The translations under genes and the position numbers were made by a program. 64,000 nt of DNA from Nibricoccus sp. (GTDB lineage: Bacteria > Verrucomicrobiota > Verrucomicrobiia > Opitutales > Opitutaceae): NCBI GenBank assembly GCA_047602425.1, contig JASGHG010000001.1, positions 4,384,001 to 4,448,000 of the forward strand, written 5' to 3'. Of the stretch, positions 14,025 through 29,225 are shown piece after piece. Numbering within the stretch: position 1 is the stretch's first letter; each line of letters starts with the position of its first letter. The notes beneath the pieces were generated by a model. That model did no database searches, was not told the DNA's origin, and saw only the letters and a list, made by a program, of their open reading frames with translations.

Positions 14025-15005
14025 TCACCGGTATTGTTGCGTCAGGCGTCGGACGGCGGCCTTGATGCTTTTGCGGAGCTCGGCGGGGGCGAGGACTTCG
14101 GCGTCGGAGCCCCAGCTCAGTATCCAACTTTCAACTTCAGGGAGCGCGCCGAGTTTCATGCTGAGTTCGACGCCGCCGTTGGGCAATTCGAGGAGGGCTT
14201 GCGAATCGTGCCAGACACGCTCACGCACGCGGTCGGCGACTTTGGCGGTGAAACGCACGCGCACCTGGTAGTTGCCGCTGCCGCCGAGCACGCCGAGGGC
14301 ATTGGAGAAAAAGTTTTCGGGCGAAAAATCCTGGGGACGGGAGAACGTCGTCTTCGTGGTGCGAACGTCCGCGATGCGGGGCAGGGCGAAGGTGCGCAGG
14401 GCCTTGCGTTCGACGTCGTGGCCGACCAGGTACCAGAGATTTTGGCGGTGAGATAAATGGTAAGGTTGAACCGAGCGGCGCGACGCGCGGGCATCGCCGG
14501 GCTTGCGATAGTCGAAGGTGACTTCCAGTTGCTTGAGCACGGCGGTGCTGAGGGTGTTGAAGACGACGAGATCGGCTTTGCCGAGGCCCATGTTTTTGAA
14601 CGATACGGCGCTGAGTTCCTCGGCGGGCGAAAAGGAAATGCGATCCTTGAGTCCTTCAGTGAGTTTATCGAAGGCGATTTCAAGCTGCCGGTGAAAGGGT
14701 GTGCCTTGATATTGCTCGACAGCGCGTCGCGCGACGAGCAACGCCATGAGTTCGCCCTCGGTGACTTCCACGGTGGGAAACGAACTCACCGGGTGCGTGT
14801 AGCGGTAGGCGTTGAGCTGCGCGTCGAATTCGATCGGGAGGTCGAGCTGGTCGCGCATATAGGCGATGTCGCGAACAACGGTTTTGCGCGAAACTTCGAG
14901 GTCGTGCATGAGCTGCGTGCAGTTGGTCATGGCTCCGCGCCGCAGGTCCTCGTGGATGCGCAGCATGCGTTCTAGAGGGGGCCGGGAGCGTCCGCGTGTG
15001 ATCAT
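14025..15005 (-). CDS. HTH-WYL-WCX transcriptional regulator (PafB/DriD-like)
   Basis: N-terminal HTH LEVSRKTVVRDIAYMRD, RSVQPYHL...WYLVGHD...RTFALPRI, C-terminal WILSWGSDAEVLAPAELR. Confidence 0.92.
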   Translation of the reverse strand: MITRGRSRPPLERMLRIHEDLRRGAMTNCTQLMHDLEVSRKTVVRDIAYMRDQLDLPIEFDAQLNAYRYTHPVSSFPTVEVTEGELMALLVARRAVEQYQGTPFHRQLEIAFDKLTEGLKDRISFSPAEELSAVSFKNMGLGKADLVVFNTLSTAVLKQLEVTFDYRKPGDARASRRSVQPYHLSHRQNLWYLVGHDVERKALRTFALPRIADVRTTKTTFSRPQDFSPENFFSNALGVLGGSGNYQVRVRFTAKVADRVRERVWHDSQALLELPNGGVELSMKLGALPEVESWILSWGSDAEVLAPAELRKSIKAAVRRLTQQYR

Positions 15006-15026: not shown

Positions 15027-15065
15027 AGGGTGGGACAGCTAGTGACCCACCCTGGGTGGTATTGT
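15027..15065 (+). promoter_or_regulatory. Palindromic operator plus -10-like hexamer between the WYL gene and the divergent gene
   Basis: AGGGTGGGACA-GCTAG-TGACCCACCCT (15027-15053), TATTGT at 15060-15065, ATG at 15072. Confidence 0.7.
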
Positions 15066-15071
15066 CAACGC

Positions 15072-15698
15072 ATGAACATGAATACCACCTCCAAAAAACT
15101 GCTCACCCGCTCGATCGAAATCATCTGGTCTCACTATGGCGAACGCTACCGCGTCGACAGCGATATGAAATTTTACCGCGAAAGCGACGAGGGCTGGGTC
15201 AACTGGCAGCCCGATCCCTCGACGGCGATCTTCTCCTCGGCGGCCGACGGCATCTCGGAAACGCGCTGGTCGGCTTTCCTCGAATTCGTTCCGACGGCGG
15301 AGCGGCGGCTGCTCGAAATGTTCGACGTGGGCCGCGCCGGCGTGCTGGCGGTGGTGGCGCTTTGCCCGGGGCTGGTGGCGGATTTGCTGGCGACGCCGGC
15401 ACTTGCGCCCTTCGTGGCCGAACATGCGCGGTTGCGCGGGACCGAAACGCGTTGGGAAGAAATCGCGGCAGTGCACAGTCGCGGTGGCGTTTACGCGCTG
15501 CTCGAATGGCTCGGTCTGCCGGCCTCGCGTCAGACGTTGACGATCTTGCAGAAGATTGCCGAACCCGATCTCGCGCGCCGTTTGCTCGAACCGATCCGCG
15601 CGTCGCTGTGGGAGCCGGAGACAATTTGGTTCCTCCAGCACACGCCTACGCTGACCGAACGCGCGCTCACGCACCACTGCGATTGCGTGGCGGCGTGA
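15072..15698 (+). CDS. Hypothetical protein divergent from the WYL regulator
   Basis: 208-aa ORF with protein-like composition filling the gap between the WYL gene and atzF. Confidence 0.7.
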   Translation: MNMNTTSKKLLTRSIEIIWSHYGERYRVDSDMKFYRESDEGWVNWQPDPSTAIFSSAADGISETRWSAFLEFVPTAERRLLEMFDVGRAGVLAVVALCPGLVADLLATPALAPFVAEHARLRGTETRWEEIAAVHSRGGVYALLEWLGLPASRQTLTILQKIAEPDLARRLLEPIRASLWEPETIWFLQHTPTLTERALTHHCDCVAA

Positions 15699-15707
15699 GC
15701 GATTTCC

Positions 15708-17399
15708 TCAACGTGCAGCGAGGAATGCCCGCCAGCCGCCGAACGAGGTGACGTCGCGAGCGTTTGCCACGGCGGCGGCTTCGCAGAGGAAACTCTGCAC
15801 GGTCGAGCCGTCGTCGAGCGTGACGGTGCCGATGCCAAGCGGACTCGGAATGTTGGAAACGAAATGGCCGTAACCCGCGACGGGGACGTTCCAGACTTCG
15901 ACTTCAATGGGCGCGCCGCCTTCGACGACCCGGATCAGTCCGGGTTTGGGCGGCGTGGTGCCGGGCAGGGCGAAGAGTTTGTAGGTGGGAGCCGTTTTGG
16001 TCGCGCGGTCGAGGGTCGCGCCGAGCTGGGTGAGTTGCCAGTTGAGCGGGAGTCCGCTGAGGTGCGCGCCGCAGACGGCAAGTTTAATCGTGCGGCCGGC
16101 AGATGGCAGGGAGCGTTGCGGCGCGGTTTCGCCGAGAAATTTTGCGCCGAGGCGGAGCACGCGATCATCGCAAAATGCGGGAGCGACGAGCGTAACGCCC
16201 CAAGGCATTTTGTTTGGCAAAAAGCCCACGGGAACGGCGACGGCACAGAGATCGAATAGGTTCAGGTAATTAGTATAGGTGCCGAGGTTCGAATTGAGAC
16301 GGATGGGATCGGACTCGACTTCGGCGACGGTGTAGACCGTGCCCGTGGTGGGCGTGAGCAATACGTCGATGTCGGCCCAAACGGCCTCGGCTTGGCGGCG
16401 GAGCGCAGCGAGTTTGTAGGCGGCCTCGAAGGCGGACGTGGCAGTGAGGGCGCGCGCGCTTTCGATGATCTGGCGCGTGACGGGATGCAGCGCGGCGGGT
16501 TGGCTCTCGATGAAAGGGCGGATGGCCGCATAACGCTCGGCGACCCACGGTCCCTCGTAGAGCAAGCGGGCCGCGGCGAGAAACGGCGTGAAGTCGATTT
16601 CGACGATTTTGGCGCCGAGCGAACGCCAGCGCGCGATGGCGGTGGCAAAAAGTTCGGCGGCGGCGGCGTTGCCGAAAAATTCGAGTTGGTCGGCGCGCGG
16701 CACGCCGATGCGAGGCGGCCAGACTTCATCGATCACCGGCGGAGTGGCGGGGCGGCTGTATGGATCTTCCGGATCGTAGGCGGCAGCGACGGAGAGAATT
16801 TCGGCGGCGTCGGAAATTGTGCGTGTGAAGATGGAAACGCAGTCGAGTGTGCGGCAGGCTGGAACCACGCCGCGGGTGCTGAGGAGGCCGCGCGTGGGTT
16901 TGAGGCCAACGAGGTTGTTGAAGGCGGCGGGAACGCGACCGGAACCGGCCGTGTCGGTGCCGAGGGCAAAATCGCATAAACCAGCCGCCACCGCCACGGC
17001 GGAGCCGGAGCTGGAGCCGCCGGGGATGTAAGCTGAGTTGAACGGATTTACGGGCACGCCATACGGTGAGCGCACGCCGACGAGGCCGGTGGCAAATTGG
17101 TCGAGATTGGTTTTGCCGAGGGGAATCGCTCCGGCATTGACGAGCCGTTGCACGACAGGAGCGGAAGTGGAGGGCGTGTACGCGAAATCGGGGCAGGCGG
17201 CGGTGGTGGGCACGCCAGCGAAGTCGATATTGTCCTTGATCGCAAACGTCAGACCGCGCAGTGGAGCGGGACCGAAAAGTTTGGCCGCGGCATCGGCGAG
17301 TCCGAGCACGTGCTCGCGGCACAGGCGCGAAATCCAGACGGGGTCCTTTCCGCGGGCGTCGAGGCGGGCGAGAGTTTCGGCGATGGGTGAAGGGGCCAT
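15708..17399 (-). CDS. atzF: Allophanate hydrolase
   Basis: AIKDNID, GKTNLDQFATGLVGVRSPYG, GGSSSGS, GTDTAGSGRVPA, C-terminal AVCGAHLSGLPLN. Confidence 0.95.
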   Translation of the reverse strand: MAPSPIAETLARLDARGKDPVWISRLCREHVLGLADAAAKLFGPAPLRGLTFAIKDNIDFAGVPTTAACPDFAYTPSTSAPVVQRLVNAGAIPLGKTNLDQFATGLVGVRSPYGVPVNPFNSAYIPGGSSSGSAVAVAAGLCDFALGTDTAGSGRVPAAFNNLVGLKPTRGLLSTRGVVPACRTLDCVSIFTRTISDAAEILSVAAAYDPEDPYSRPATPPVIDEVWPPRIGVPRADQLEFFGNAAAAELFATAIARWRSLGAKIVEIDFTPFLAAARLLYEGPWVAERYAAIRPFIESQPAALHPVTRQIIESARALTATSAFEAAYKLAALRRQAEAVWADIDVLLTPTTGTVYTVAEVESDPIRLNSNLGTYTNYLNLFDLCAVAVPVGFLPNKMPWGVTLVAPAFCDDRVLRLGAKFLGETAPQRSLPSAGRTIKLAVCGAHLSGLPLNWQLTQLGATLDRATKTAPTYKLFALPGTTPPKPGLIRVVEGGAPIEVEVWNVPVAGYGHFVSNIPSPLGIGTVTLDDGSTVQSFLCEAAAVANARDVTSFGGWRAFLAAR

Positions 17400-17410
17400 G
17401 CGGGAGGAAG

Positions 17411-17494
17411 ATTAGTAATTTGTAGTTGGTAGTTTGTAGTTGGTTTTTGACGAAGGGCAGCTTTGACGAACTACTAATTTCAAACTGCCAATTA
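17411..17494. repeat. Inverted heptamer (GTAGTTG/GTAGTTT) repeat hairpin between uca and atzF
   Basis: GTAATTT GTAGTTG GTAGTTT GTAGTTG ... AACTACT AATTTCA AACTGCC AATTAC. Confidence 0.75.
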
Positions 17495-20400
17495 CACTGC
17501 CGTTGCGGCGGCGATTGGCTTGATGACGACGAGTGGATCGCCGGCTTGCACGGGTTTGCCTTCGGCGCAGAGGACCTGTGTGACCTCGCCTGCGCCGGTG
17601 GCGAAGACGGAAATTTCCATTTTCATGGATTCGAGGATGACGAGAGCTTGATCGCGCGTGATGCGGTCGCCGGGCTGGACGTTGATCTTCCAAACGTTGC
17701 CGGGAACCTGTGCGACGATGGCGGTATGGCCTGGCGGGAGCGCGGCATGTTCGGCGGGGCCGGTGGAGGCTTCGCTCTCGGCGGAAAAGTTGAGCTGGCC
17801 GGACGCTTCCCAGCGTTTGCGCTCGGCTTCGAACGATTGCTGCTGGTTCGTCTTGAAGGCGGTGATGGAGGCGGCGTTATCGCGAAGGAATTTCCGATAG
17901 TCGCGCAGGCGAAATGTCTCGTGGTCAATCTTGAGCTTGTAACGGCCGAGCGGGAAATCCTGGCGGAATTTCAACAACTCCTGGGCACTGACCTCGTGGA
18001 ACTTAATCTGGTCAAAGAAGCGCAGCAACCACGGCTTACCGCCAGTGAAGTCAGAGGTTTGCCGCCAGCGGTTCCACATCTGCACGGTGCGGCCGATGAA
18101 CTGATAGCCGCCGGGACCTTCCATGCCATAAACGCACAGGTATGCGCCGCCAATGCCGACGGCGTTCTCGGGCGTCCACGTGCGAGCGGGATTGTATTTC
18201 GTGGTAACGAGGCGGTGACGCGGATCGACAGGCGTGGCGACGGGTGCGCCCAGATAAACGTCGCCAAGGCCGAGAACGAGATAGTTTGCGTCGAAGGCGA
18301 TGCGCTTCACGTCGTCGATGGAGTCGAGGCCGTTGATGCGGCGGATAAATTCGATATTGCTCGGGCACCACGGCGCGTCCTTGCGGACGGTCTGCATGTA
18401 TTTTCGGATGGCGAGGAGTGTGGACTCGTCTTCCCACGAGAGCGGCAAGTGGACGATGCGCGTGGGAACTTCCATATCGTCGAGAGCAGGAAGGTGAACC
18501 TCGGCGTCGATCAATGTCTCCATCAGACGTTCGAGCGGAAGCACGCGGCTGTCGAAGTGAACCTGAAGCGAACGGATGCCGGGAGTGAGATCGAGGATGC
18601 CGGGCGTGTGGCTGTCGACAAGCCAGTCCATCAAGGCGTGAACGCGGAAGCGAAGTTCGAGGTCGAGGACGGCGGGGCCGTATTCGATCAGCAAATACTT
18701 ATCGCCGGCGCGCCGGTAGACGACGGCGGGCAAATCGTCGCGAGGCGGAATGGTGTGGAGGATGGAGGAGGCAGTGGTTGGTAGTTGGTAGTTGGTGGTT
18801 GGTGCGGACGCAGGCGTGGCTTTGGAAGTTTTACCAATTCCCAAATCCCAACGACCAATTGCCCCGGCTCGTTGCCGGCCGGGAATCAAGGTCTCGATCT
18901 GCGCTTCGTGGACCGCTTCGAGTTCGCGGGCCTTGGCGGCGGTGACGGGCCGGAACCGGACTTTGTCGCCAGGCTTAAGCTGGCCGACTTTCCAGAGATC
19001 GGCGGTGATGATCGTCGCGGGGCATACGAAACCGCCGCAGCTCGGGCCGTCGGGACCGAGGATGATCGGCATGTCGCCGGTGAAATCGATCGCGCCGATT
19101 GCGTAGGCGTTATCGTGGATGTTGGACGGATGCAGGCCGGCTTCGCCACCGTCGGTGCGCGCCCAGCGCGGTTTTGGGCCAATCAGGCGGACGCCGGTGC
19201 GGGCGGAGTTGAAGTGAACCTCGTAGGTCGCGGAGAAAAGATCGGCGATGTCTTCGTCTTTGAAAAAATCGGGCGCACCATGCGGACCGTAGAGGACGGC
19301 GATGTCCCATTCGCGGGTATATGTTGGAACGAGGGCGGCCGGGAGTTTGCGGAGCGCGGAGGAGGTAGTTGGTAGTTGGGAGTTGGAAATTGGTGCGGAC
19401 GCAGGCGTAGGCGAAGGGTTTTCACCAATTACTAAAAACGAATTACCAACTACGGTTTGAGCGAAGTGAAGCACGTCGCCAGCGCGCAACGCACGTCCAG
19501 CGTGGCCGCCGAAGAGGCCGAGCGTGAAGGTGGCCTTGCTGCCGAGGTAATCGGGGACATCGAAACCATGCTGAATCGCCAAATAGGCGCGCATGCCGGC
19601 CTCGGTGACTGCACCGACGCGGAGGGTTTGGCCGCGTTTCACGCGGAAGGCGCGCCAGAAAGTCACGGGCTTGTCGTCGAGTGTCGCGGACGTGGCCGCG
19701 CCGGTCAGGGCGACGATGGCAGAAGTGTTGAAGCGGAGCGTGGGACCGCTGAGGGTAATTTCGAGCCCGGCGGCGGAAGCGGGATTGTCGACAAGACGAT
19801 TGGCTAGCCGGAACGCGAGGGCATCCATCGGTCCGGAGGGAGGAACGCCGACATCCCAATGCCCGAGGCGGCCGGGATAGTCCTGCACGGTGGTTTGGGT
19901 TCCGCCGTCGAGAACCTCAATGGTTGGTGCGGAGTAGGGAAGTTTTTCGAGATACCGCGTGGTGACTTTACCGGCGCGGAACCCTTCGGAGGCGAGAATC
20001 TGGCGCAAGTAGAGCAGGTTGGTTTCGAGGCCGGCGACGCGCGTTTCGGCGAGCGCCTGAGCGAGGCGGTTGAGCGCTTCGTCGCGTGTCGAACCGCGCG
20101 AAATCAGTTTCGCGATCATCGGATCGTAGTACGGGCTGACTTCGGAGCCACGCTCGACCCAGGTTTCAGTACGCAAGCTGTGCGGAACGACAAACTCGGT
20201 GAGCACGCCGGTGGCGGGTTGGAAATTTTTGCCAGGATCCTCAGAGTAGAGACGGACTTGGATCGAGGCGCCAAAAGAGCGGCGCTGAAAATTCGTGAGG
20301 TCAAGTTCGCCAGCGGCCTGCTTGACCATCCACTCGACAAGATCGATGCCGGTGACTTCCTCGGTCACGCCGTGCTCGACCTGGAGGCGGGTGTTAACTT

Positions 20401-21262
20401 CGAGAAAATAGAATTTGTTTGTCGCGTCGTCGAAGACGAATTCGACGGTGCCGGCGGACTCGTAGCCGGCGGCGTGGCCGAGTTTCTCGGCGCAAGCAAG
20501 TAGTTCGGCACGGACGTTTTCGGGCAGGCCGGGTGCGGGCGTTTCCTCGATGATCTTTTGGTTGCGACGCTGGATGGAGCATTCGCGCTCGCCGAGGGCG
20601 ACGACGTGGCCGCGTCCATCGCCAAAAATCTGCACTTCGATGTGACGGGCTCGCTCGACGTATTTTTCGAGGAAGAGACCGCTCTCTTTGAAATTGGCGC
20701 GACTGAGGCGATCGACGCGGGCGAACGCGGGTTCGAGCTCAGCGGCGTTCCAACAGAGTTGCATGCCGATGCCACCGCCGCCGGCCGTGCTCTTGAGCAT
20801 GACCGGATAACCGATGCGCTCGGCTTCGCGCAGCGCGGTGGCGACATCGGGCAAAAGTCCAGTGCCGGGAAGAAGCGGAGCGTTTTCTTTTTGCGCGATT
20901 TCGCGGGCGGTGTGCTTCAGGCCGAAGCGACGCATCTGATCGGGTTTCGGGCCGATGAACACGATGCCAGCGGCAGCGCAGGCTTCGGCGAAGCCTGGAT
21001 TTTCCGAGAGAAAACCATAACCAGGATGTATCGCCTGGGCGCCCGTCTGCTTGGCCACCTCAAGGATTTTTTCGATGACGAGATAGCTTTGGGCGGCTGG
21101 CGCAGGACCGATCAGAACAGATTCATCGGCCTCTGCAACGTGGAGCGAGCCGACATCGGCTTCGGAGTACACGGCAACGGACTTGATGCCCATTTTGCGC
21201 AGGGTGCGCTCGATGCGGCAGGCGATGGCACCACGGTTGGCGATGAGGACTTTGGTGAACAC
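17492..21262 (-). CDS. uca: Urea/guanidine carboxylase (biotin-dependent)
   Basis: Biotin carboxylase (IANRGAIA, HPGYGFLSEN, EVNTRLQVEH), carboxyltransferase (GLHPSNIHDNAY, KYNPARTWTPENAVGIGG), biotinyl ESMKME; GTG start. Confidence 0.96.
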   Translation of the reverse strand: MFTKVLIANRGAIACRIERTLRKMGIKSVAVYSEADVGSLHVAEADESVLIGPAPAAQSYLVIEKILEVAKQTGAQAIHPGYGFLSENPGFAEACAAAGIVFIGPKPDQMRRFGLKHTAREIAQKENAPLLPGTGLLPDVATALREAERIGYPVMLKSTAGGGGIGMQLCWNAAELEPAFARVDRLSRANFKESGLFLEKYVERARHIEVQIFGDGRGHVVALGERECSIQRRNQKIIEETPAPGLPENVRAELLACAEKLGHAAGYESAGTVEFVFDDATNKFYFLEVNTRLQVEHGVTEEVTGIDLVEWMVKQAAGELDLTNFQRRSFGASIQVRLYSEDPGKNFQPATGVLTEFVVPHSLRTETWVERGSEVSPYYDPMIAKLISRGSTRDEALNRLAQALAETRVAGLETNLLYLRQILASEGFRAGKVTTRYLEKLPYSAPTIEVLDGGTQTTVQDYPGRLGHWDVGVPPSGPMDALAFRLANRLVDNPASAAGLEITLSGPTLRFNTSAIVALTGAATSATLDDKPVTFWRAFRVKRGQTLRVGAVTEAGMRAYLAIQHGFDVPDYLGSKATFTLGLFGGHAGRALRAGDVLHFAQTVVGNSFLVIGENPSPTPASAPISNSQLPTTSSALRKLPAALVPTYTREWDIAVLYGPHGAPDFFKDEDIADLFSATYEVHFNSARTGVRLIGPKPRWARTDGGEAGLHPSNIHDNAYAIGAIDFTGDMPIILGPDGPSCGGFVCPATIITADLWKVGQLKPGDKVRFRPVTAAKARELEAVHEAQIETLIPGRQRAGAIGRWDLGIGKTSKATPASAPTTNYQLPTTASSILHTIPPRDDLPAVVYRRAGDKYLLIEYGPAVLDLELRFRVHALMDWLVDSHTPGILDLTPGIRSLQVHFDSRVLPLERLMETLIDAEVHLPALDDMEVPTRIVHLPLSWEDESTLLAIRKYMQTVRKDAPWCPSNIEFIRRINGLDSIDDVKRIAFDANYLVLGLGDVYLGAPVATPVDPRHRLVTTKYNPARTWTPENAVGIGGAYLCVYGMEGPGGYQFIGRTVQMWNRWRQTSDFTGGKPWLLRFFDQIKFHEVSAQELLKFRQDFPLGRYKLKIDHETFRLRDYRKFLRDNAASITAFKTNQQQSFEAERKRWEASGQLNFSAESEASTGPAEHAALPPGHTAIVAQVPGNVWKINVQPGDRITRDQALVILESMKMEISVFATGAGEVTQVLCAEGKPVQAGDPLVVIKPIAAATAV
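18772..18862. repeat. In-frame heptamer-hairpin insertion in uca (copy 1)
   Basis: GTGGTTG GTAGTTG GTAGTTG GTGGTT-GGTGCGGACGCAGGCGT-...-CCAATTC CCAAATC CCAACGA CCAATTG. Confidence 0.75.
19364..19453. repeat. In-frame heptamer-hairpin insertion in uca (copy 2)
   Basis: GTAGTTG GTAGTTG GGAGTTG GAAATT-GGTGCGGACGCAGGCGT-...-CCAATTA CTAAAAA CGAATTA CCAACTAC. Confidence 0.75.
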
Positions 21263-21267
21263 GGGAA

Positions 21268-21299
21268 AGTAGTTGGTAGTTTGTAGTTGGTAATTGGTA
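21268..21299. repeat. Left heptamer arm flanking the four-helix-bundle gene
   Basis: GTAGTTG GTAGTTT GTAGTTG GTAATTG GT. Confidence 0.8.
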
Positions 21300-21359
21300 C
21301 GGGGATGCTCAATCTTTTGTTGCTCTCGTGCATTGGTGCAGGCTTCCTATAAATCCACT

Positions 21360-21737
21360 ATGGCGACTTTTGTATTGGATGAACTGAGGGTTTACCGCAT
21401 GGCGGAGGAATTGGCGGACGCGACGTGGGATTTGATTGGTGATTGGGCTCCGTTTGCTAAGGAAACCGTTGGCAAGCAGCTGGTGCGCGCGGCCGATAGC
21501 GTCGGTGCAAACATCGCCGAGGGTTACGGACGAGCGTCGCCGGCCGACAATCAACGTTTCGTGAGAATGGCACGCGGATCTCTTTACGAAGTTAGGCATT
21601 TTCTGCGCCGAGCGGATAAGCGAGGGCTGGTGGATAAGACGTCGAAGCAGGCATTGCAGAAAGTTCTCAGTGAATTGCTCCCGGGATTGAATGCATACCT
21701 TCGTTCCCTGCGAAATGGCGGGGATGGTGACAAATAG
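21360..21737 (+). CDS. Four helix bundle protein (23S rRNA IVS protein / Avd-like family), antisense to the operon
   Basis: ELRVYRMAEEL, KQLVRAADSVGANIAEGYGR, RFVRMARGSLYE. Confidence 0.9.
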   Translation: MATFVLDELRVYRMAEELADATWDLIGDWAPFAKETVGKQLVRAADSVGANIAEGYGRASPADNQRFVRMARGSLYEVRHFLRRADKRGLVDKTSKQALQKVLSELLPGLNAYLRSLRNGGDGDK

Positions 21738-21768
21738 GAATTTTACGGAGGTGCACACAGGTGTTTCG

Positions 21769-21797
21769 ACCAACTACCAAATACAAACTACTAACTC
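21769..21797. repeat. Right (inverted) heptamer arm flanking the four-helix-bundle gene
   Basis: ACCAACT ACCAAAT ACAAACT ACTAACT. Confidence 0.8.
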
Positions 21798-21798
21798 C

Positions 21799-22491
21799 TC
21801 AATCCGACGCATGGGAGGGCTTGGCATTCCAAACCAAAACTTCGATTGGCGTCGGGTTGTAGGCGTTGCAGGGGTTGTTGAGTTGGGGGCAATTTGAGAT
21901 GAGGCAGATGACGTCGCGTTCGGCGCGGAGCTCGACGTAACGGCCCGGCCCTGAAACGCCGTCTTCGAACGTGAGGCGACCGTCGGGCGTGACGGGGACG
22001 TTCATGAAGAAGTTGATGTTGCAGGTGATGTCGCGTTTGCCCCAGTCATGTTTTTCGAGATGGAAACTGTGGCATGAGCAGGAAATTTCCTGGGCGCCGC
22101 GAATAAAACTGTCGCGGCAGGCGTGCATGTGCTCCTTTTCAAGGGCGTAGCGCATGGTGTTGCTTTCGCGCGAGCAGGCGCCGCCGAGCGTGTCGTGGCG
22201 ACCGCAGGTGTCGGCAACGATAGTGAGGAGCGCGTCGCCTTCGGTGGAAACGAGGCGCGTTCCGGTTGTGAGGTAGAGAGCACCTTGGTGACGAATCGTA
22301 TCGGAGGCGCTGTAGCGGTTGGCTGGTTCGTGTGCGTCGTAGAAAAGTGTGTCGGCCGCCTGATTTCCCTCGAGATCGACGATGCGGAGGGTTTGGCCCT
22401 TTTTAACGACGTAGGAAAAATAGTCGCCGGCGAGCACGACCTTACGGAATGCCGCGGTGGATGGGTCGAGTTTGCTTTCGGTGAGGGTCAT
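21799..22491 (-). CDS. cgdB: Urea carboxylase-associated protein 1 (DUF1989), carboxyguanidine deiminase subunit B
   Basis: [54 protein letters not shown]. Confidence 0.88.
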
Positions 22492-22558
22492 GGGAGGCGG
22501 TGTCTCGCGAAGATACGAAGGGGGCGAAGGAGGAGTTGATAATCAATCCGAAGAAAGG

Positions 22559-23281
22559 TTAGGAGCTTAGCGCGTAGTAGTTCTCGGTGTTGAGGAAAGC
22601 TCGGGCGTTTTCCGGGCGGGAGTTGCGGCACGGGTCGTCCGCGGTGGGCGGTGGTGTGGCGAAGATTTCTACCTTCACGTTGCGCGGGTGGTAGACGGGA
22701 TCTGGATCGAGCGGGTGCTGACAGGTGTTGAGCACGACGAGCGTGTTCATCTCGAAACGGAGATCGACGGAGCCGCCGGCTTTCGAGTGGTCCGAGACGA
22801 AGGAGAGTTTGCCGGAGTCGTCGGCGACAACTTTGGAAAATAGATTAAGGTTCGGCACGAGATCGCGTTTGCCGAGACCATGCTTGGCGAGTTCGATGAG
22901 GAAGCAGTCACGGCCGTTGCGGAAAAATTCGTTTCGAGAGGTCTGGTAGTTTTTGTCGCCGTATTTTTGGGCGACGAGGTTGGCGTCGGAGCAGCCGCAA
23001 ACGGTGTCGTGCCAGCCGGCGGAATCGGCGACGATCGATGCGAGGACACGTCCCATGTCGGAATGCAGACAATACGGTGCGCGGACATGGAAGATATGCT
23101 GGCCCTTGAGCGTATCAGGCATGTTGTACCGTTCGGTTGGTTGGTCGGCGTTGTAGAGAAGCAGGCCAACGTTCGCACCGCCTTCGAGATCGGTGAGACG
23201 CAGAGTCTTGCCGCGAGAAATCACGCCCGACCACATGCCGGCGTGGTGGAGTTGCTTGGTGAGGAGTGGGGCGGAGATCAT
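22559..23281 (-). CDS. cgdA: Urea carboxylase-associated protein 2 (DUF1989), carboxyguanidine deiminase subunit A
   Basis: [48 protein letters not shown]. Confidence 0.88.
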
Positions 23282-23286
23282 TGGCG

Positions 23287-23330
23287 GTATTACGAAATTA
23301 ATGAAAAGTGTTACTGCAAGGATCGTGCCG
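23287..23330 (-). promoter_or_regulatory. Sigma54 promoter with abutting GTATTAC-N14-GTGTTAC operator upstream of cgdA
   Basis: Minus strand CGGCACGATCCTTGCA (GG-N10-GC, 23330-23315); half-sites at 23287-23293 and 23308-23314. Confidence 0.75.
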
Positions 23331-23377
23331 ATTCCTCAGGACGGGTGAAAATTGCCACTGCTTTGTGCTCGGATTGT

Positions 23378-23878
23378 CTACCGAAGGGGTGGAATGGCGG
23401 CGGCGGTGAGATTGAGCCGGCCATTTTTCACGCCTTTGCACGTGACGAGCTCGTCGGTCAGTTTGCGCAGTTCGTTTGCCGGCCCCTGAACGAGGAGAAC
23501 TTCGAGGTAGTTGTGATGTTCCAAGTGTACGTGCATACTGGATACAATCAGCAAGTAGTAGCGGTGTTGGATTTCCGCGAGGCGCGCCTGGAGATCTTTT
23601 TTTCGATAGTCGTAAACGAGGCTGACCGTGCCGGCGACAGAACCGGTGCCGATTTCGCTGGCAAACTCGACCAAACCGTCGCGAGCGAGCGCAGCCACAG
23701 CTTGCGAGCGACTCTGAAAGCCACGACTTGCCACCATGGCGTCGAGCTCGTCGAGCAGGCTTTCAGGAAGCGAAATGCTGAAGCGGGCGACTTTGTCGGA
23801 GCGGGCAGCTGCGACCGGCGAATCCGTTGAAGGATTCGCCGCTGTGGGCAGAGTTGAGTTTCTAGAAGAGGCGGGCAT
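23378..23878 (-). CDS. NikR-family ribbon-helix-helix regulator lacking the nickel-ligand Cys
   Basis: [17 protein letters not shown]...[18 protein letters not shown]...[20 protein letters not shown]. Confidence 0.85.
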
Positions 23879-25223
23879 AACGATCGACTTCCCACTGGCT
23901 GACAGTGAGGTGGTAGGCGCGCCATTCCTCGGATTTGTAGGTGATAAACTCGTCGCGCAATTCCTGGCCGAGCGTTTTGGCGATAAACGGATCGGCGGCG
24001 AAAAGCTCCACGGCTTCCTCCAAGTCGCGTGGCAGATAGGAAATGTTTCGTTTGGCTAGTTCGGTTTCAGGAAGTTCATAGAGGTTCTCCTCCTGGGGTG
24101 AGCCCGGATCGAGTTTTTCGCGGACGCCTTCCAGGCCGGCGGCGAGCAGCAGCGTCGCGGCGAGGTAGGGGTTGCAGGCGGAGTCGGCATTGCGGCTTTC
24201 GCAGCGGCCTCCGCCCATAGGCACGCGAATGGAGTTGGTGCGATTGTTGGTGCCGAAGCTGTTGAAGACTGGCGCCCATGAATAGTAACTCATCGCACCG
24301 CGGCGAACGAGGCGTTTGTAACTGTTGACCGTCGGAGCGAGCGCCGCACAGATCGAGCGACCGTGGCGAATGACGCCGGCGATGAATGAGTAGGCGAGCG
24401 GCGTGAGTCCTAGGCCGCGCGGGTCTTCCTTTGGATCGCACTTGAATGCGTTTTTTCCCGAGGCGAGCTCGTAGAGCGACATGTTGAAATGGGCGCCGTT
24501 ACCGGTTTTGTCGGCGAAGGGCTTGGGCATGAACGTGGCGAGCAGGCCCTCCTCGGAAGCAAACTGCTTCGCCATCATGCGGAAAAAGACGTAGCGGTCG
24601 CACATGGTTAGGGCGTCGGCATATTTGAAATCGAACTCGAACTGCGAAGGCGCATCCTCGTGGTCGAGCGAATAAAGGTCCCAGCCGAGGTTGTTGATCG
24701 CGGTCGAAACCTTGTCGAGCCAGGTGTAGCGATCCATGAAGCGCTTGATGTCGTAGCAGCTCTTCACGAGGTTGTCGTCGGAGTTGGGAATCGAGAGCTT
24801 GCCATCGTCACCGTGCTTCACGACGAAGACCTCACACTCGATGCCGAGGTTGAAACCGAGTCCGAGCTTGGCGGCGTCGGCGAGGACGTTTTTCAGCGCG
24901 ACCCGTGTGTTGATAGGATATGGTTCGTCGTGGAAGGTGTTATCGGCGGGAAACCAGGCGACTTCGGATTTCCACGGCAAAATGATACCACGATCGAGAT
25001 CGGGGAGGGAGGCGATTTCGTCGTCGTTTGGGCGCTGGCCCAAGCCATCGAGCGCGTAGCCGGTGTAAAGCTCGGACCCGTGCGCAAAGTGGAGGAAATG
25101 ATCGATGGGCACGAATTTGCCCTTCGGAATGCCGTGAATATCAGTGTAGGCGCCGACGCAATATTTGACGCCCTTGGCTTTGAGTTCGGCCTGAAGTTTA
25201 AGAATGTCGGAATCGGATTTCAT
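23862..25223 (-). CDS. Type III glutamate-ammonia ligase (GlnT / gamma-glutamylmethylamide synthetase-like)
   Basis: [66 protein letters not shown]. Confidence 0.85.
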
Positions 25224-25285
25224 TTATGAAAAGATAAAGGGTTGTTGGCGATGGGTGATGGGTCCTGTTACTGGCTATTCTCTTT

Positions 25286-26101
25286 TCATAAATGCGAAGG
25301 CGACTGGCCGCTGGCGGACGGAAAATAAGGCACGTCGAGTGGAGAACGTTCGCGCATGCCGCGGCGGACGAGCTTGGCGAGATCGGTGACGAGCCAACGA
25401 AGAAGGCGCTGGCCTTTGGCCTGGGTTGCGCGGCTGGGAAAGCCCGTAACGCCATTGGCACTGGTGCGGTTGACTGGGTGGGCAAAAACGAGACCGCCGG
25501 TGCGGTCAGGATCGTCGGATTTTTTCAGAAGGCGGGGACGGAGGATTTCCGGCGCAGCCGCGAGCATGAGGGCGGTTTCGGCGGCGTTGGCGTGCCAATC
25601 TGCAGCGTCGGAAAAAAACTCACGTCTAACGCGCGGGCTGGCCTCCGCGGCATTGATCACCGCGATCATGAAGCCGTCGTGGCGGCTCCGCAGAATTTCG
25701 AGCGCGCAGCGAAGCGGTGCGTGGTTCGTGACGTGAGTGTTGAGTAAAAAAAGGCGGCGGAAACCCGCGGCAAAGAGCCAGTCGCCGATGTCAGTCACAA
25801 GTGAAATCAGCGTCTGTGGCTGCAGCGCCAGCGTGCCGGGCCAGCGATGCGAATGTCCCAGAGAGCAGCCGTAGTGCAGCGTCGGCAGGACAGGAACGCG
25901 GGTCGTGGCAGAAACGGCTTCGCCCAGAATGGTCGCCAGGGAAGCATCCATGCCGGTGCCGAGGTGCGGACCATGCTGCTCGGTGGCGCCGCAGGGCAGG
26001 ATCACGCCGTCGACGCCGCTGGCGTGCAATGCAGCGATCTCGGGCCAGGTTAGTTTGTCCCAGGCGAGCGGTTTTGGCGAAGACTGTTTTTTGCGCGGCA
26101 T
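25286..26101 (-). CDS. Creatininase-family amidohydrolase
   Basis: LPCGATEQHGPHLGTGMD, YGCSLGH..WPGTL, NTHVTN, DWHANAAET. Confidence 0.88.
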   Translation of the reverse strand: MPRKKQSSPKPLAWDKLTWPEIAALHASGVDGVILPCGATEQHGPHLGTGMDASLATILGEAVSATTRVPVLPTLHYGCSLGHSHRWPGTLALQPQTLISLVTDIGDWLFAAGFRRLFLLNTHVTNHAPLRCALEILRSRHDGFMIAVINAAEASPRVRREFFSDAADWHANAAETALMLAAAPEILRPRLLKKSDDPDRTGGLVFAHPVNRTSANGVTGFPSRATQAKGQRLLRWLVTDLAKLVRRGMRERSPLDVPYFPSASGQSPSHL

Positions 26102-26103
26102 AG

Positions 26104-27021
26104 TTATTCAACGTCGTCGCCGACCTGGGTCAGACGCACGATGGGAAGTCTTTCGATTTCGGCGCTGTGGACGTCCGTTTTGGGGTGGATCAATTCGTCC
26201 AACCGCCTCCGGGTGGCGAGGAACTCCGGCGAATTCACCTGCGCCAGATTGCGAGGCCGGGGCACGGGCACTTCGATGATTTCCTGAACTTCGCCGGGAT
26301 TGGCCTTGAGCACGAGAATGCGATCGGCGAGGAGCACGGCTTCATCGAGATCGTGCGTGATGAAGAGGATGGTGACGTCGACATTGCGCCAGATTTCGAG
26401 CAAGTGCGTCTGCATCTGCGCGCGCGTCTGGGCATCGAGCGCGCCGAACGGTTCGTCCATCAGGAGGATTCGTGGATTGGCGGCCAGCGCACGCGCGATG
26501 GCGGTGCGCTGCTTCATGCCGCCGGAGAGCTGGGCTGGGTAGGCATTTTCGAACCTTGAAAGACCGACAAGCTCGATCCACTGACGCGCTTCGCTGGAGG
26601 CCTGCGTGCGTTCCATGCCCTGCATCTGCAAGCCGAACATCACATTTTCCGCAACCGTGCGCCAGGGGAAAAGCGTGTAGCCCTGGAAGACCATGCCGCG
26701 ATCGGGGCCGGGGCCGTGGACCTCCTTGCCGTCGAGCAGCATGCGACCGGAAGTCGGATAATCGAGGCCGGCGACCATGCGGATGAGCGTGGACTTGCCG
26801 CAGCCGGAGGGGCCGATCACGCAGAGAAATTCGCGGCGGTGGACTTTGAACGACACATCGCGCAAGGCGGTGACCGGGCCATTTTCGCCCTCGAACGACC
26901 GGCCGAGTTGCTGCACATCGAGGACGACGGGGCGTTCCTTGAGCTTGCGAAAACGTTCCGCGACGGCAGACGATTGCGTGCGATAGTCGGGAAGGCTGGA
27001 AATTTCGGTCGCGGAAGTCAC
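26104..27021 (-). CDS. ABC transporter ATP-binding protein (TauB/SsuB-like)
   Basis: [32 protein letters not shown]. Confidence 0.93.
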
Positions 27022-28070
27022 TTGGTAAGAATGGGCTTGTAAGGTGGAATTTTAATCAGCGGCGTGGCGTAACGATCGGTGACGAGACGGACGAAATACG
27101 TGCGCAGACGGCTGGGGCGCGGATTTTTCCACGCGAAAACGCGAACTCCGATAAAGGCGAGTACCTGATCGGTGAGCAGGCCGATGACGCCAATGATCAC
27201 GATGGCGGCATAAACGTTGTCGAAGTTGCGGTACTTGGCCTGCTGATTGATGAAGAAAGTGATTCCCGAACTAACGCCTACCACCTCCGCAACGATCAGG
27301 TAGGTCCAAGCCCACCCCAGCAGAATGCGCAGGTCGTTATAGAGATCAGGGAGGCTGGCGGGGACAATGACGCGCCAGACGAGTTGCCGGCGTCTCGCTC
27401 CGAGTGTCTGCGCAGCCTCGATCAGGCTGATCTCGGTTTTTCGCACCGTATTTGAAACTACGAGGACCTGCTGGAAGAAAGTTCCGATGACAATGATGGC
27501 GACCTTGGGTTCGAGATGGATGCCGAAGATGGCGACCATGAGCGCTCCGAAGGCCGGAGCTGGCATATACCGGATGAAATCGACAAAAGGCTCGGTGAGA
27601 CGGGCGATCGCAGGATGCGCACCGCAAAAAATCCCAAGCGGCACACCGATCAGCGAAGAGATGACGAAGCCCCAGAAGATGGTCTTGATGCTCATCCAAA
27701 GACTCTCATGCAACCAAAGGTCGCCACGCAGAACCGGCTTGGTGGTGAACGCGGTGTAAAGCGCCCGGGCGACGGCGTGCGGAGCGGGAAGAAAAATCGG
27801 ATTTGCGCGCGTGCCCGTGGGAAGGTTTCCGCCCTCGGACTGCAAGCGCGTTGCTTCCTTGGTGAAATCGGCTCGAGGAATAAGCAAGCCCGGGCGAAAC
27901 CAGGAGACATCGCCAGGCGAATCCACTTTCACCATCGGGTGCCAGATGAACGGCACATAGCTCACGATGCACCAGAGCGCCAGGGGTAGCAAAAACGCCA
28001 GCACGCCGAGCACCATGCGGCGGCGGGGTGTGAGGTCTTTGCGGACCGAAAGCCAGCTCTGTTTAGGCAT
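27018..28070 (-). CDS. ABC transporter permease (TauC/SsuC-like)
   Basis: [35 protein letters not shown]; start chosen at MPKQSW. Confidence 0.9.
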
Positions 28071-28163
28071 GACGTGGAATTTTGGATACAACCCAGCCCT
28101 GCGCCGGGCCATTGGCTGCCCGGCGGGGCGAAGAAGACGGAGGGGTTTACGAAGGGCGGGTGA

Positions 28164-29162
28164 TTACTTTTTCTTTAGAACTTCAGCAGTGAGCGACGCG
28201 TCGATGTACGAAGGAACGTTCTGCGCTTCTTTGTAGACGCCATTGGTTACGTTGAATTCGTCGGCGATTTTCGAAGAGCCGATGAGCGAGTCGAAACCCT
28301 TGGTCTGAGCCGAGAGGACTTTACCGCCTTCGGCGAGGGTGAGGAACTGGGTGCCGGGCATGAAGGAAGCGTACTCCTTGGGATCCACACCGGCGCGGGC
28401 AGCCATGATCTTGATGCCGTCTTCACGGGTCTTCGGATCTTTCAAATAAGCCACAACCTTGTCCCAGACGGAAACGAACTTGACCCAATCGGCACGGCGC
28501 TGGGCGAGACTCTGCGGGGTGACGACGACGGCGTCGTAGATCAACCCGGGTTCATTGGCGCTGGTGTAAATGGCCTTGGAGCCGGGGACGGCCTTGAGAG
28601 CGGCCCCGGAATTGGGCTGCCAGGCGCCAATGGCGTCGACCTGTCCGGACGCGAGCACCTGCGGCGTCTGATTTGTGGGGGTGGGAACCAGTTCGAGATC
28701 TTTTTCGGTGAGGCCCACTTTCTTCAGGCCGTTGAGCAGGAGAAGATGTTCAACGAAGCCGATCTCGATGCCGATTTTTTTGCCCTTGAGGTCTTTCAAC
28801 GAGGCGATGCCGGGCTTGGCGACGATCATGTCGTTACCATTGGAAAAATCGGTCATGAGGATCATGACGTTTTTCGCGCCGTTGGCGCCCGTAACGAGGG
28901 CGTCGCCGTTGGTTACGGTAACGGCGTCGCATTTACCGGCGGTGAAAGCTTCCATCGACGGGCCGTACTCGAACCAGAGCAGTTCGACTTCGACGCCGGC
29001 TTCTTTGAACCAACCCTTTTGTGCGGCGATTTCGAGAGCGGTCCAGCCGGGCCAGTCCGAGAAGGCGACTTTGAGTGGTGCGGCGGAAGCGAGGCTGGTG
29101 ATGAGAACGAAGAGCGTGGCGAAAACAGACAGACGGCGGCGGAGGGAGGAGGTGGTGATCAT
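28164..29162 (-). CDS. ABC substrate-binding protein (NMT1/THI5-like, urea-carboxylase-associated type)
   Basis: Signal peptide, [20 protein letters not shown]. Confidence 0.88.
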
Positions 29163-29170
29163 TGGAGGCA

Positions 29171-29225
29171 GTGTTACTTTTTGAGCAAAACGTGTTACGC
29201 CTGTCTCTCAGCACGGGCTATGCCA
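29171..29225 (-). promoter_or_regulatory. Sigma54 promoter with downstream GTGTTAC-N14-GTGTTAC operator upstream of the ABC operon
   Basis: Minus strand TGGCATAGCCCGTGCT (29225-29210); half-sites at 29171-29177 and 29192-29198. Confidence 0.72.

Follow-up and report, generated by a model that had tools for sequence, protein, structure and literature searches.

Bacterial operons for the assimilation of guanidine combine a guanidine carboxylase (Gca) with the carboxyguanidine deiminase CgdAB, the allophanate hydrolase AtzF and an ATP-binding cassette (ABC) importer (PMC11410670; PMC12186494; papers with PMC numbers are cited here from excerpts of their text). Carboxylases of this kind are defined by Asp residues at two sites, 1584 and 1330 in K. 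lactis numbering (PMC11410670), and the excerpt of PMC12186494 states the same Asp/Asn rule for carboxylase type. Such an operon may be extended by the MgdH/MgdL pair, which converts methylguanidine to guanidine (PMC12508155). The origin of free guanidine in nature is described as an open question (PMC12186494; PMC12623156). Here we analyze an operon of Nibricoccus sp. that lies within a stretch of 64,000 nucleotides, hereafter the window, and combines the genes of guanidine carboxylation with a creatininase-fold metallo-amidohydrolase and an ATP-dependent glutamate ligase of the GlnT/GmaS type. We tentatively propose, as a possibility rather than a probability, that these two enzymes act as a feeder, which would glutamylate a small imported guanidine derivative other than methylguanidine and then hydrolyse it to free guanidine.

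The operon and its guanidine carboxylase core

Coordinates are positions in the window, and all operon genes lie on the minus strand. Ten co-oriented genes follow the order substrate-binding protein (SBP), permease, ATPase, creatininase, GlnT, NikR-like gene, cgdA, cgdB, uca and atzF, with intergenic gaps of -17 to 96 bases. An earlier note on this DNA had given these ten genes, their order and their common orientation correctly, and had overlooked an extra open reading frame (ORF) of 154 residues described below. The same gene set, intact or rearranged, recurs in loci labelled Verrucomicrobiota, Alpha- and Gammaproteobacteria, so the arrangement is not due to chance; the closest homologs are labelled Opitutaceae. 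Each operon gene is present as a single copy in the 5.16-Mb host genome, the completeness of which is 99.97%.

Judged from its sequence, the operon core is a guanidine carboxylase pathway for guanidine assimilation, comprising the ABC importer, an Asp-type carboxylase, CgdAB and AtzF. The product of uca (17492..21262), a urea carboxylase of the guanidine type, matches TIGR02712 with a score of 1866 (cut-off 1304) and has both signature aspartates, Asp1001 corresponding to K. lactis 1584 and Asp726 to 1330 in the alignment to 5i8i. The two DUF1989 subunits of the deiminase, encoded by cgdA (22559..23281, TIGR03425) and cgdB (21799..22491, TIGR03424), and the allophanate hydrolase encoded by atzF (15708..17399, TIGR02713) each exceed their family cut-off in profile searches. 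The importer consists of an NMT1/SsuA-type SBP (28164..29162, with an NMT1 match), a permease (27018..28112) and an ATPase (26104..27021); the SBP scores under the TIGR03427 cut-off (134 vs 334 bits) and is 61-62% identical to the SBPs that lie under guanidine-I riboswitches in loci L097 and L145. Asp-type enzymes account for 30 of the 31 related carboxylases that were parsed, the remaining one having Cys, and a guanidine hydrolase replaces the carboxylase where it is absent; a urea-type substrate is therefore disfavoured at the level of sequence. Urease genes and a urea ABC system are also present in the host.

Association of the hydrolase and the ligase with guanidine-consuming enzymes

The hydrolase gene (25286..26101, PF02633 with 216 bits) is followed by the ligase gene (23862..25223, TIGR03105 with 605 bits against a cut-off of 470). 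Their association was evaluated in the best 80 of 515 hydrolase relatives from a genome scan and in the best 80 of 207 from a scan of metagenomes that started from a Hyphomicrobium homolog. The two genes are neighbours in 78 of the 80 genome loci and 79 of the 80 metagenome loci (157/160), and each of the three exceptions ends no more than 132 bases from a contig edge, the distance being 88 and 44 bases for the two genome loci; the metagenome one is a short contig. The adjacent metagenome pairs occur in both gene orders (72 and 7), and a second subclade in which the ligase precedes the hydrolase is found in L093, L094, L108, L120, L129, L134, L140 and L157. Among the longer proteins there is one fusion of glutamine synthetase (GS) and creatininase with 744 residues (P0122), a single sequence that could be a read-through; an ATPase-hydrolase fusion (P0121) looks like a read-through and was discarded. 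A search for the hydrolase on plasmids gave no match.

A ligase of the same clade, at 72-100% identity, is present in 6 of the 121 genomes sampled from the class of the host, all six of which have the adjoining hydrolase and cgdB, the latter being found in 8 genomes in total. Among 401 Pseudomonadota genomes the hydrolase occurs in 4 as against 43 with cgdB; three of the four are cgdB carriers, and the fourth has cgdA, a partial cgdB and uca at the locus. Since most Pseudomonadota genomes with CgdAB do not have the pair, and the pair nearly always occurs with a guanidine enzyme, the dependence is one-way: the pair needs a guanidine-consuming enzyme, and not conversely. The genomes behind 49 loci, picked mostly because the locus had no cgd genes, were also searched. 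The pair is carried by 42 of them, of which 35 match TIGR03424 (cgdB) with an E value of 1e-20 or better, while 6 of the remaining 7 have a ureohydrolase gene (GdmH) directly upstream of the hydrolase. One of these ureohydrolases was compared with solved structures, and Synechocystis GdmH (7esr/7oi1, E 4e-155) and comammox guanidinase (9fek) are far better matches to it than any agmatinase. GdmH is present in 12 of the 167 loci collected, never together with cgd or uca, and its loci are spread over three distinct positions in the ligase tree. When loci of at least 19 kb are considered, 51 of 66 hold a guanidine-consuming gene; of the 15 without one, 12 come from genomes that encode cgdB at another site, and 3 are metagenome loci. 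The co-occurrence analysis suggested by the earlier note thus indicates that the two halves of the operon go together strongly, with 157 of 160 pairs adjacent and a guanidine-consuming step nearly always present.

Features of the ligase and the hydrolase

The residues of RhGmaS that serve ATP, metal and glutamate binding and catalysis are listed in PMC7948447, and those in the excerpt are retained by the ligase, including the catalytic Asp177, Glu186 and Arg312 as well as the Trp flap. Among solved structures it is closest to glutamate-methylamine ligases (9qur, E 7e-102; 7cql, E 1e-89). The alignment shows, however, that Gln175 and Asn188 of the GmaS pocket are replaced by Ser and Asp in 76/76 hydrolase-linked ligases, whereas the ligases linked to mgs genes keep both residues in 6/6; a Glu51 is added in 75 of the 76. 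The hydrolase-linked ligases form one clade apart from Mgs-linked GmaS (SH-aLRT 97, in a quick tree of 53 of 149 rows with SH-aLRT support and no bootstrap), and Hyphomicrobium genomes carry both kinds side by side. In Hyphomicrobium facile (L093, of the second subclade) there are four paralogs matching TIGR03105, and two are hydrolase-linked. TIGR03105 or gmaS matches of this clade should not be counted as methylamine use.

The ligase also departs from ordinary ammonia GS, an identity that the earlier note had named, together with unrelated substrates of the hydrolase, as one that would overturn its proposal. Its TIGR00653 (type I GS) score is below the cut-off (277 vs 429), the Asp50' and the Glu-flap glutamate of type I GS are replaced by Thr54 and Trp316, and the host has a separate GS of 343 residues with the size and appearance of type II. 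The positions of Gln175 and Asn188 are taken by Ala and Asp in type I GS, and the idea that the pocket is specially acidic for guanidinium is weakened by this same combination of Asp with a small residue. In five genomes of one genus (L008-L012) the catalytic Asp is exchanged for Gln in a diverged ligase of the clade, a possible change of function.

Creatininase cleaves an acyl bond and not an amidine, and its family includes deformylases. In the hydrolases of the present clade the metal-site residues E41, H43, D52, H123 and E175 are invariant (100/100), and the position of creatininase Glu122 is occupied by Thr, Gly or Ser (Thr in 94/100, Glu in 0). The TIGR04448 score of the window protein is under the cut-off (119 vs 235 bits), a structure model confirms the creatininase fold (TM 0.79) and the ESM Atlas returned creatininase clusters only. 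The title of PDB 3a6d indicates that this fold binds methylguanidine. A distant creatininase-family protein (P0249, a single sequence) is fused to a peptidase C26 domain of the gamma-glutamyl hydrolase type.

Predicted regulation by a NikR-like protein in place of a riboswitch

The NikR-like gene (23378..23878) encodes a protein with RHH and NikR_C domains. The Cys of its HNC motif, part of the His/His/His/Cys nickel site in NikR, is missing in 79/79 parsed copies (Thr 39, Tyr 33, Met 4, Leu 3, Cys 0), Tyr replacing it in the window; an unlinked NikR in G142 retains it. Two predicted operators lie on the minus strand, GTAACAC-N14-GTAACAC directly 5' of the SBP start (29171..29198) and GTAACAC-N14-GTAATAC directly 5' of cgdA (23287..23314). 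The 28-bp pattern was drawn from these two sites, and hence only relatives test it. When 14 loci too short to score are omitted, a predicted operator is found at most 300 bases from the SBP match in 55 of 58 loci with a NikR-like gene vs 3 of 18 without it. The genomes of the three operator-bearing exceptions have a NikR-like gene beside cgdA elsewhere, again with a predicted site, so that split operons would stay in one predicted regulon. A third match to the pattern (G000:C1:3967684-3967711, minus strand) lies upstream of an unrelated gene pair and is not claimed as an operator, given that control spacings produce 0-5 genome matches. Promoter and terminator scans gave signals no higher than in shuffled sequence.

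No Rfam riboswitch matches the window at the gathering or E-value threshold, nor does the host genome contain a guanidine-I riboswitch (RF00442, for which the control matched in B. subtilis; guanidine classes II-IV were not searched genome-wide). A guanidine-I model built from 12 Rfam matches and run over 168 sources gave 18 matches, 11 of which directly precede the importer-hydrolase-ligase unit, in two cases with an mgdL-like gene first. All 11 of these loci are without a NikR-like gene, and the genome behind L097 has no NikR-like match. It is thus likely from these sequence patterns that the NikR-like protein and its 28-bp operator take the place of the riboswitch where the latter is absent. 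The protein would repress both transcription units through the predicted operators, and it would sense not nickel but guanidine or some nitrogen signal related to it. With its predicted binding site, this regulator is a candidate protein counterpart of guanidine riboswitches. The earlier note had recognised the NikR-like gene and had overlooked the operator and the exchange of regulator for riboswitch.

Additional genes in related loci

A cassette of genes for a PuuE-like deacetylase, a Rieske oxygenase, a short-chain dehydrogenase/reductase (SDR), an FGE-domain protein and a TIM-barrel protein is inserted in about 27 loci (e.g. L039:5306-9995) and may serve to feed in some larger guanidino compound by an oxidative step; the cassette's deacetylase and Rieske genes are absent from the host. 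Rieske oxygenases as such join 30 of the 167 loci. Genes of the MgdL family, recognised by eye against the alignment of PMC12508155, are present in 13 loci and accompanied by a 2-oxoglutarate (2OG) dioxygenase in 5, so that some operons with the pair are already equipped to feed in methylguanidine. The MgdL-family gene has no neighbouring dioxygenase in the other 8 (L165, L184, L172, L151, L163, L177, L086 and L090), where it may remove formaldehyde-guanidine adducts. Seven loci contain urease accessory genes, and urea ABC genes lie ahead of several loci with GdmH. In L027 (12175-16744) and L033 a second ABC importer together with a Rid protein, a deacetylase and isochorismatase-family hydrolases, the latter BiuH-like at scores below the cut-off, is inserted after the ligase.

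Function of the hydrolase-ligase pair

A module that needs any guanidine-consuming enzyme, and is induced with it, is most simply read as a feeder yielding guanidine, following the logic of the MgdH/MgdL feeder inside a gca operon. Such a role upstream of the guanidine step, put forward in general terms by the earlier note, emerges from our analysis as the best reading. The importer would bring in a small guanidine derivative other than methylguanidine, the ligase would use ATP to join glutamate to a nitrogen of this substrate, and the creatininase-fold enzyme would hydrolyse a C-N bond of the acylguanidine type, so that guanidine (or carboxyguanidine) is set free while one nitrogen stays on glutamate. 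The guanidine would then proceed through carboxyguanidine and allophanate to ammonia. We infer the chemistry of the pair from family precedent only. Hydroxyguanidine and aminoguanidine (PMC9533460, excerpt) were considered as substrates and set aside, as no link was found and a redox-free route from them to guanidine is not evident.

Several points weigh against the feeder. The hydrolyses known to release guanidine need no ATP, which makes the role of the ligase the weakest step. By its sequence, the ligase pocket gives no positive sign of a guanidinium substrate: Ser185 and Asp198 of the window ligase resemble the states of type I GS, and Glu51 alone is specific to the clade. Neither cgdB nor GdmH was seen in G154, a fragmented metagenome-assembled genome of 2.3 Mb with the pair on a contig of 2.7 kb; L104 has a ligase of the clade without hydrolase, and the five genomes L008-L012 have neither hydrolase nor cgdB beside their diverged ligase. 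Moreover, related genomes are non-independent, so that the counts given above overstate the association, and 10 of the 11 riboswitch-preceded loci appear to be one lineage (seven were placed on the tree, in one group).

The alternative that survives best, although we regard it as unlikely, is a third route of guanidine degradation, in which the ligase would glutamylate guanidine itself and the hydrolase would cut the amidine carbon to give glutamine and urea (or glutamylurea and ammonia). Urea would pass to urease or to the carboxylase and AtzF, and the whole would form an ATP-driven route of high affinity alongside CgdAB and GdmH. Direct control of the pair by guanidine-I riboswitches speaks for it, as do a minimal unit that requires no other enzyme, the urease and urea transport genes of related loci and the urease of the host. 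The same route should permit pairs without CgdAB or GdmH, which are almost never seen; moreover, the carboxylase remains Asp-type in 30/31 cases and creatininase cuts an acyl bond and not the amidine. The lack of pairs with neither CgdAB nor GdmH also told against a stand-alone ATP-dependent guanidinase, an idea that was demoted accordingly. The broader proposal that the pair carries out a third ATP-driven attack on guanidine via gamma-glutamylguanidine, placing one nitrogen into glutamine, and that the NikR-like protein is a guanidine sensor replacing the riboswitch across several bacterial groups, also seems to us rather unlikely.

Two further alternatives, about equal to each other, appear still less probable. 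The pair might be a trap-and-release buffer, the ligase storing guanidine as gamma-glutamylguanidine and the hydrolase returning it to the carboxylase or GdmH. This would account for the dependence on a downstream guanidine enzyme, would fit the acylguanidine chemistry of creatininase and is compatible with the toxicity of guanidine above 5 mM that the excerpt of PMC12704784 reports for Synechocystis; however, both enzymes belong to one transcription unit, their genes 62 bases apart, and would run a futile cycle unless regulated, with no sign of such regulation. The ligase might instead be a non-canonical glutamine synthetase that recaptures ammonia, the hydrolase acting as deaminase or deformylase of a guanidine adduct such as formylguanidine. 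The resemblance of Ser185/Asp198 to type I GS agrees with this, as does the presence of deformylases in the creatininase family; RhGmaS accepts ammonium at high Km (PMC7948447, excerpt), and the dioxygenase-free MgdL-like genes of 8 loci hint at a clean-up of spontaneous guanidine adducts. Thr54 and Trp316 at the two positions that define type I GS, the GSII of the host and a ligase that travels with the hydrolase and not with cgdAB all argue against ammonia recapture.

The fate of methylamine bears on the original proposal of the earlier note. With G040 and two Hyphomicrobium genomes as positive controls, the host genome gave no match to mgsA or mgsB, no stand-alone mgsC (the query matches glutamate synthase only) and no SoxD-type subunit (control positive in 2/5); there is a 32% partial match to the large Mgd-type subunit, and linked mgsABC was found in 0/167 loci. 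With no Mgs route in the host, glutamylmethylamide would be left without a pathway making it useful. The proposal of a hydrolase acting on methylguanidine, methylurea or a creatinine derivative, with the ligase capturing the methylamine as glutamylmethylamide, therefore seems the least probable of all, and its methylamine trap is not supported, since the closeness of the ligase to 9qur and 7cql and its GmaS-like catalytic residues and Trp flap are outweighed by its separate clade, the replaced Gln175/Asn188, the missing Mgs genes, the methylguanidine-demethylase-like genes (MgdL-like with 2OG dioxygenase) that share 5 loci with the pair and the Hyphomicrobium genomes that hold both types of ligase.

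The feeder thus remains our preferred interpretation. A module conserved beside whichever guanidine-consuming enzyme is present suggests either a guanidine derivative that is common in nature or an activation chemistry that is undescribed. The statement of the earlier note that the combined route had no description agrees with our search of the full-text literature, which excludes most subscription journals and in which no description was found of the pair together with a guanidine or urea carboxylase; papers on guanidine that were checked for the same subject contained none either.

Other features of the locus

The 154-residue ORF (21309..21773) lies between cgdB and uca as a passenger, with no Pfam or NCBIfam match. 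Homologs are found in few relatives only, at the same place in L022, L024, L043 and L050, and it may resemble four-helix-bundle intervening proteins. It adjoins a family of short tandem repeats (17408-17449, 18760-18817, 19351-19408 and 21255-21312) that flanks uca and also lies twice in frame inside it, adding about 47 residues with respect to L018. Similar inserts are present in the uca of L019 and L021 and absent from L018, L022 and L023. Beyond atzF, a gene for an HTH-WYL-WCX regulator (14025-15005, minus strand) is divergent from an ORF of 222 residues on the plus strand (15030-15698), the latter without family match.

Comparison with known systems

The gamma-glutamylation routes Puu, Ipu and Atd pair a GS-like ligase with a hydrolase. 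The present operon resembles them in this pairing, and the Rieske oxygenase of 30/167 loci is reminiscent of aniline routes; it differs in having a hydrolase of creatininase fold rather than a glutamine amidotransferase of the C26 type, and a minimal unit without oxidative middle step. The hydrolase itself shares with creatininase (PDB 1q3k, 3a6d) the fold (TM 0.79) and five metal-site residues, but is only 28% identical to it, has Glu122 replaced, scores 119 vs 235 with TIGR04448 and possesses invariant acidic motifs of its own. With GmaS (PDB 7cql, 9qur; PMC7948447, excerpt) the ligase has in common its membership of TIGR03105, the catalytic Asp, Glu and Arg and the lack of Asp50' and the Glu flap. 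It is distinguished by its separate clade, by an identity of 36-41% to the Mgs-linked ligases in the collected loci, by the replaced Gln175/Asn188 and added Glu51, and by loci without mgs or mgd genes.

The regulator is like NikR (PDB 2bj1, 2ca9, 1q5v) in its RHH and NikR_C domains and in the 28-bp, two-half-site geometry of its predicted operator, and unlike it in the HNC Cys missing from 79/79 copies, in a predicted regulon of guanidine catabolism and in its position in the place of the riboswitch. Compared with the guanidine carboxylase operons described in the excerpts of PMC11410670 and PMC12186494, the Nibricoccus operon has all the catabolic genes, both aspartates and the upstream importer, with the hydrolase-ligase pair in addition and an SBP under the TIGR03427 cut-off; the riboswitch that is usual there, though not obligatory, is replaced here by the NikR-like gene and its predicted operators. 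The closest parallel to the proposed feeder is the gca operon of Vreelandella boliviensis extended by MgdH and MgdL (PMC12508155, excerpt), in which two extra genes likewise feed guanidine to the carboxylase. Methylguanidine is the substrate of a 2OG dioxygenase and a lyase in that operon, whereas an ATP-dependent ligase and a metallohydrolase are found here, in a minimal unit without oxidase, and both modules coexist in 5 loci.

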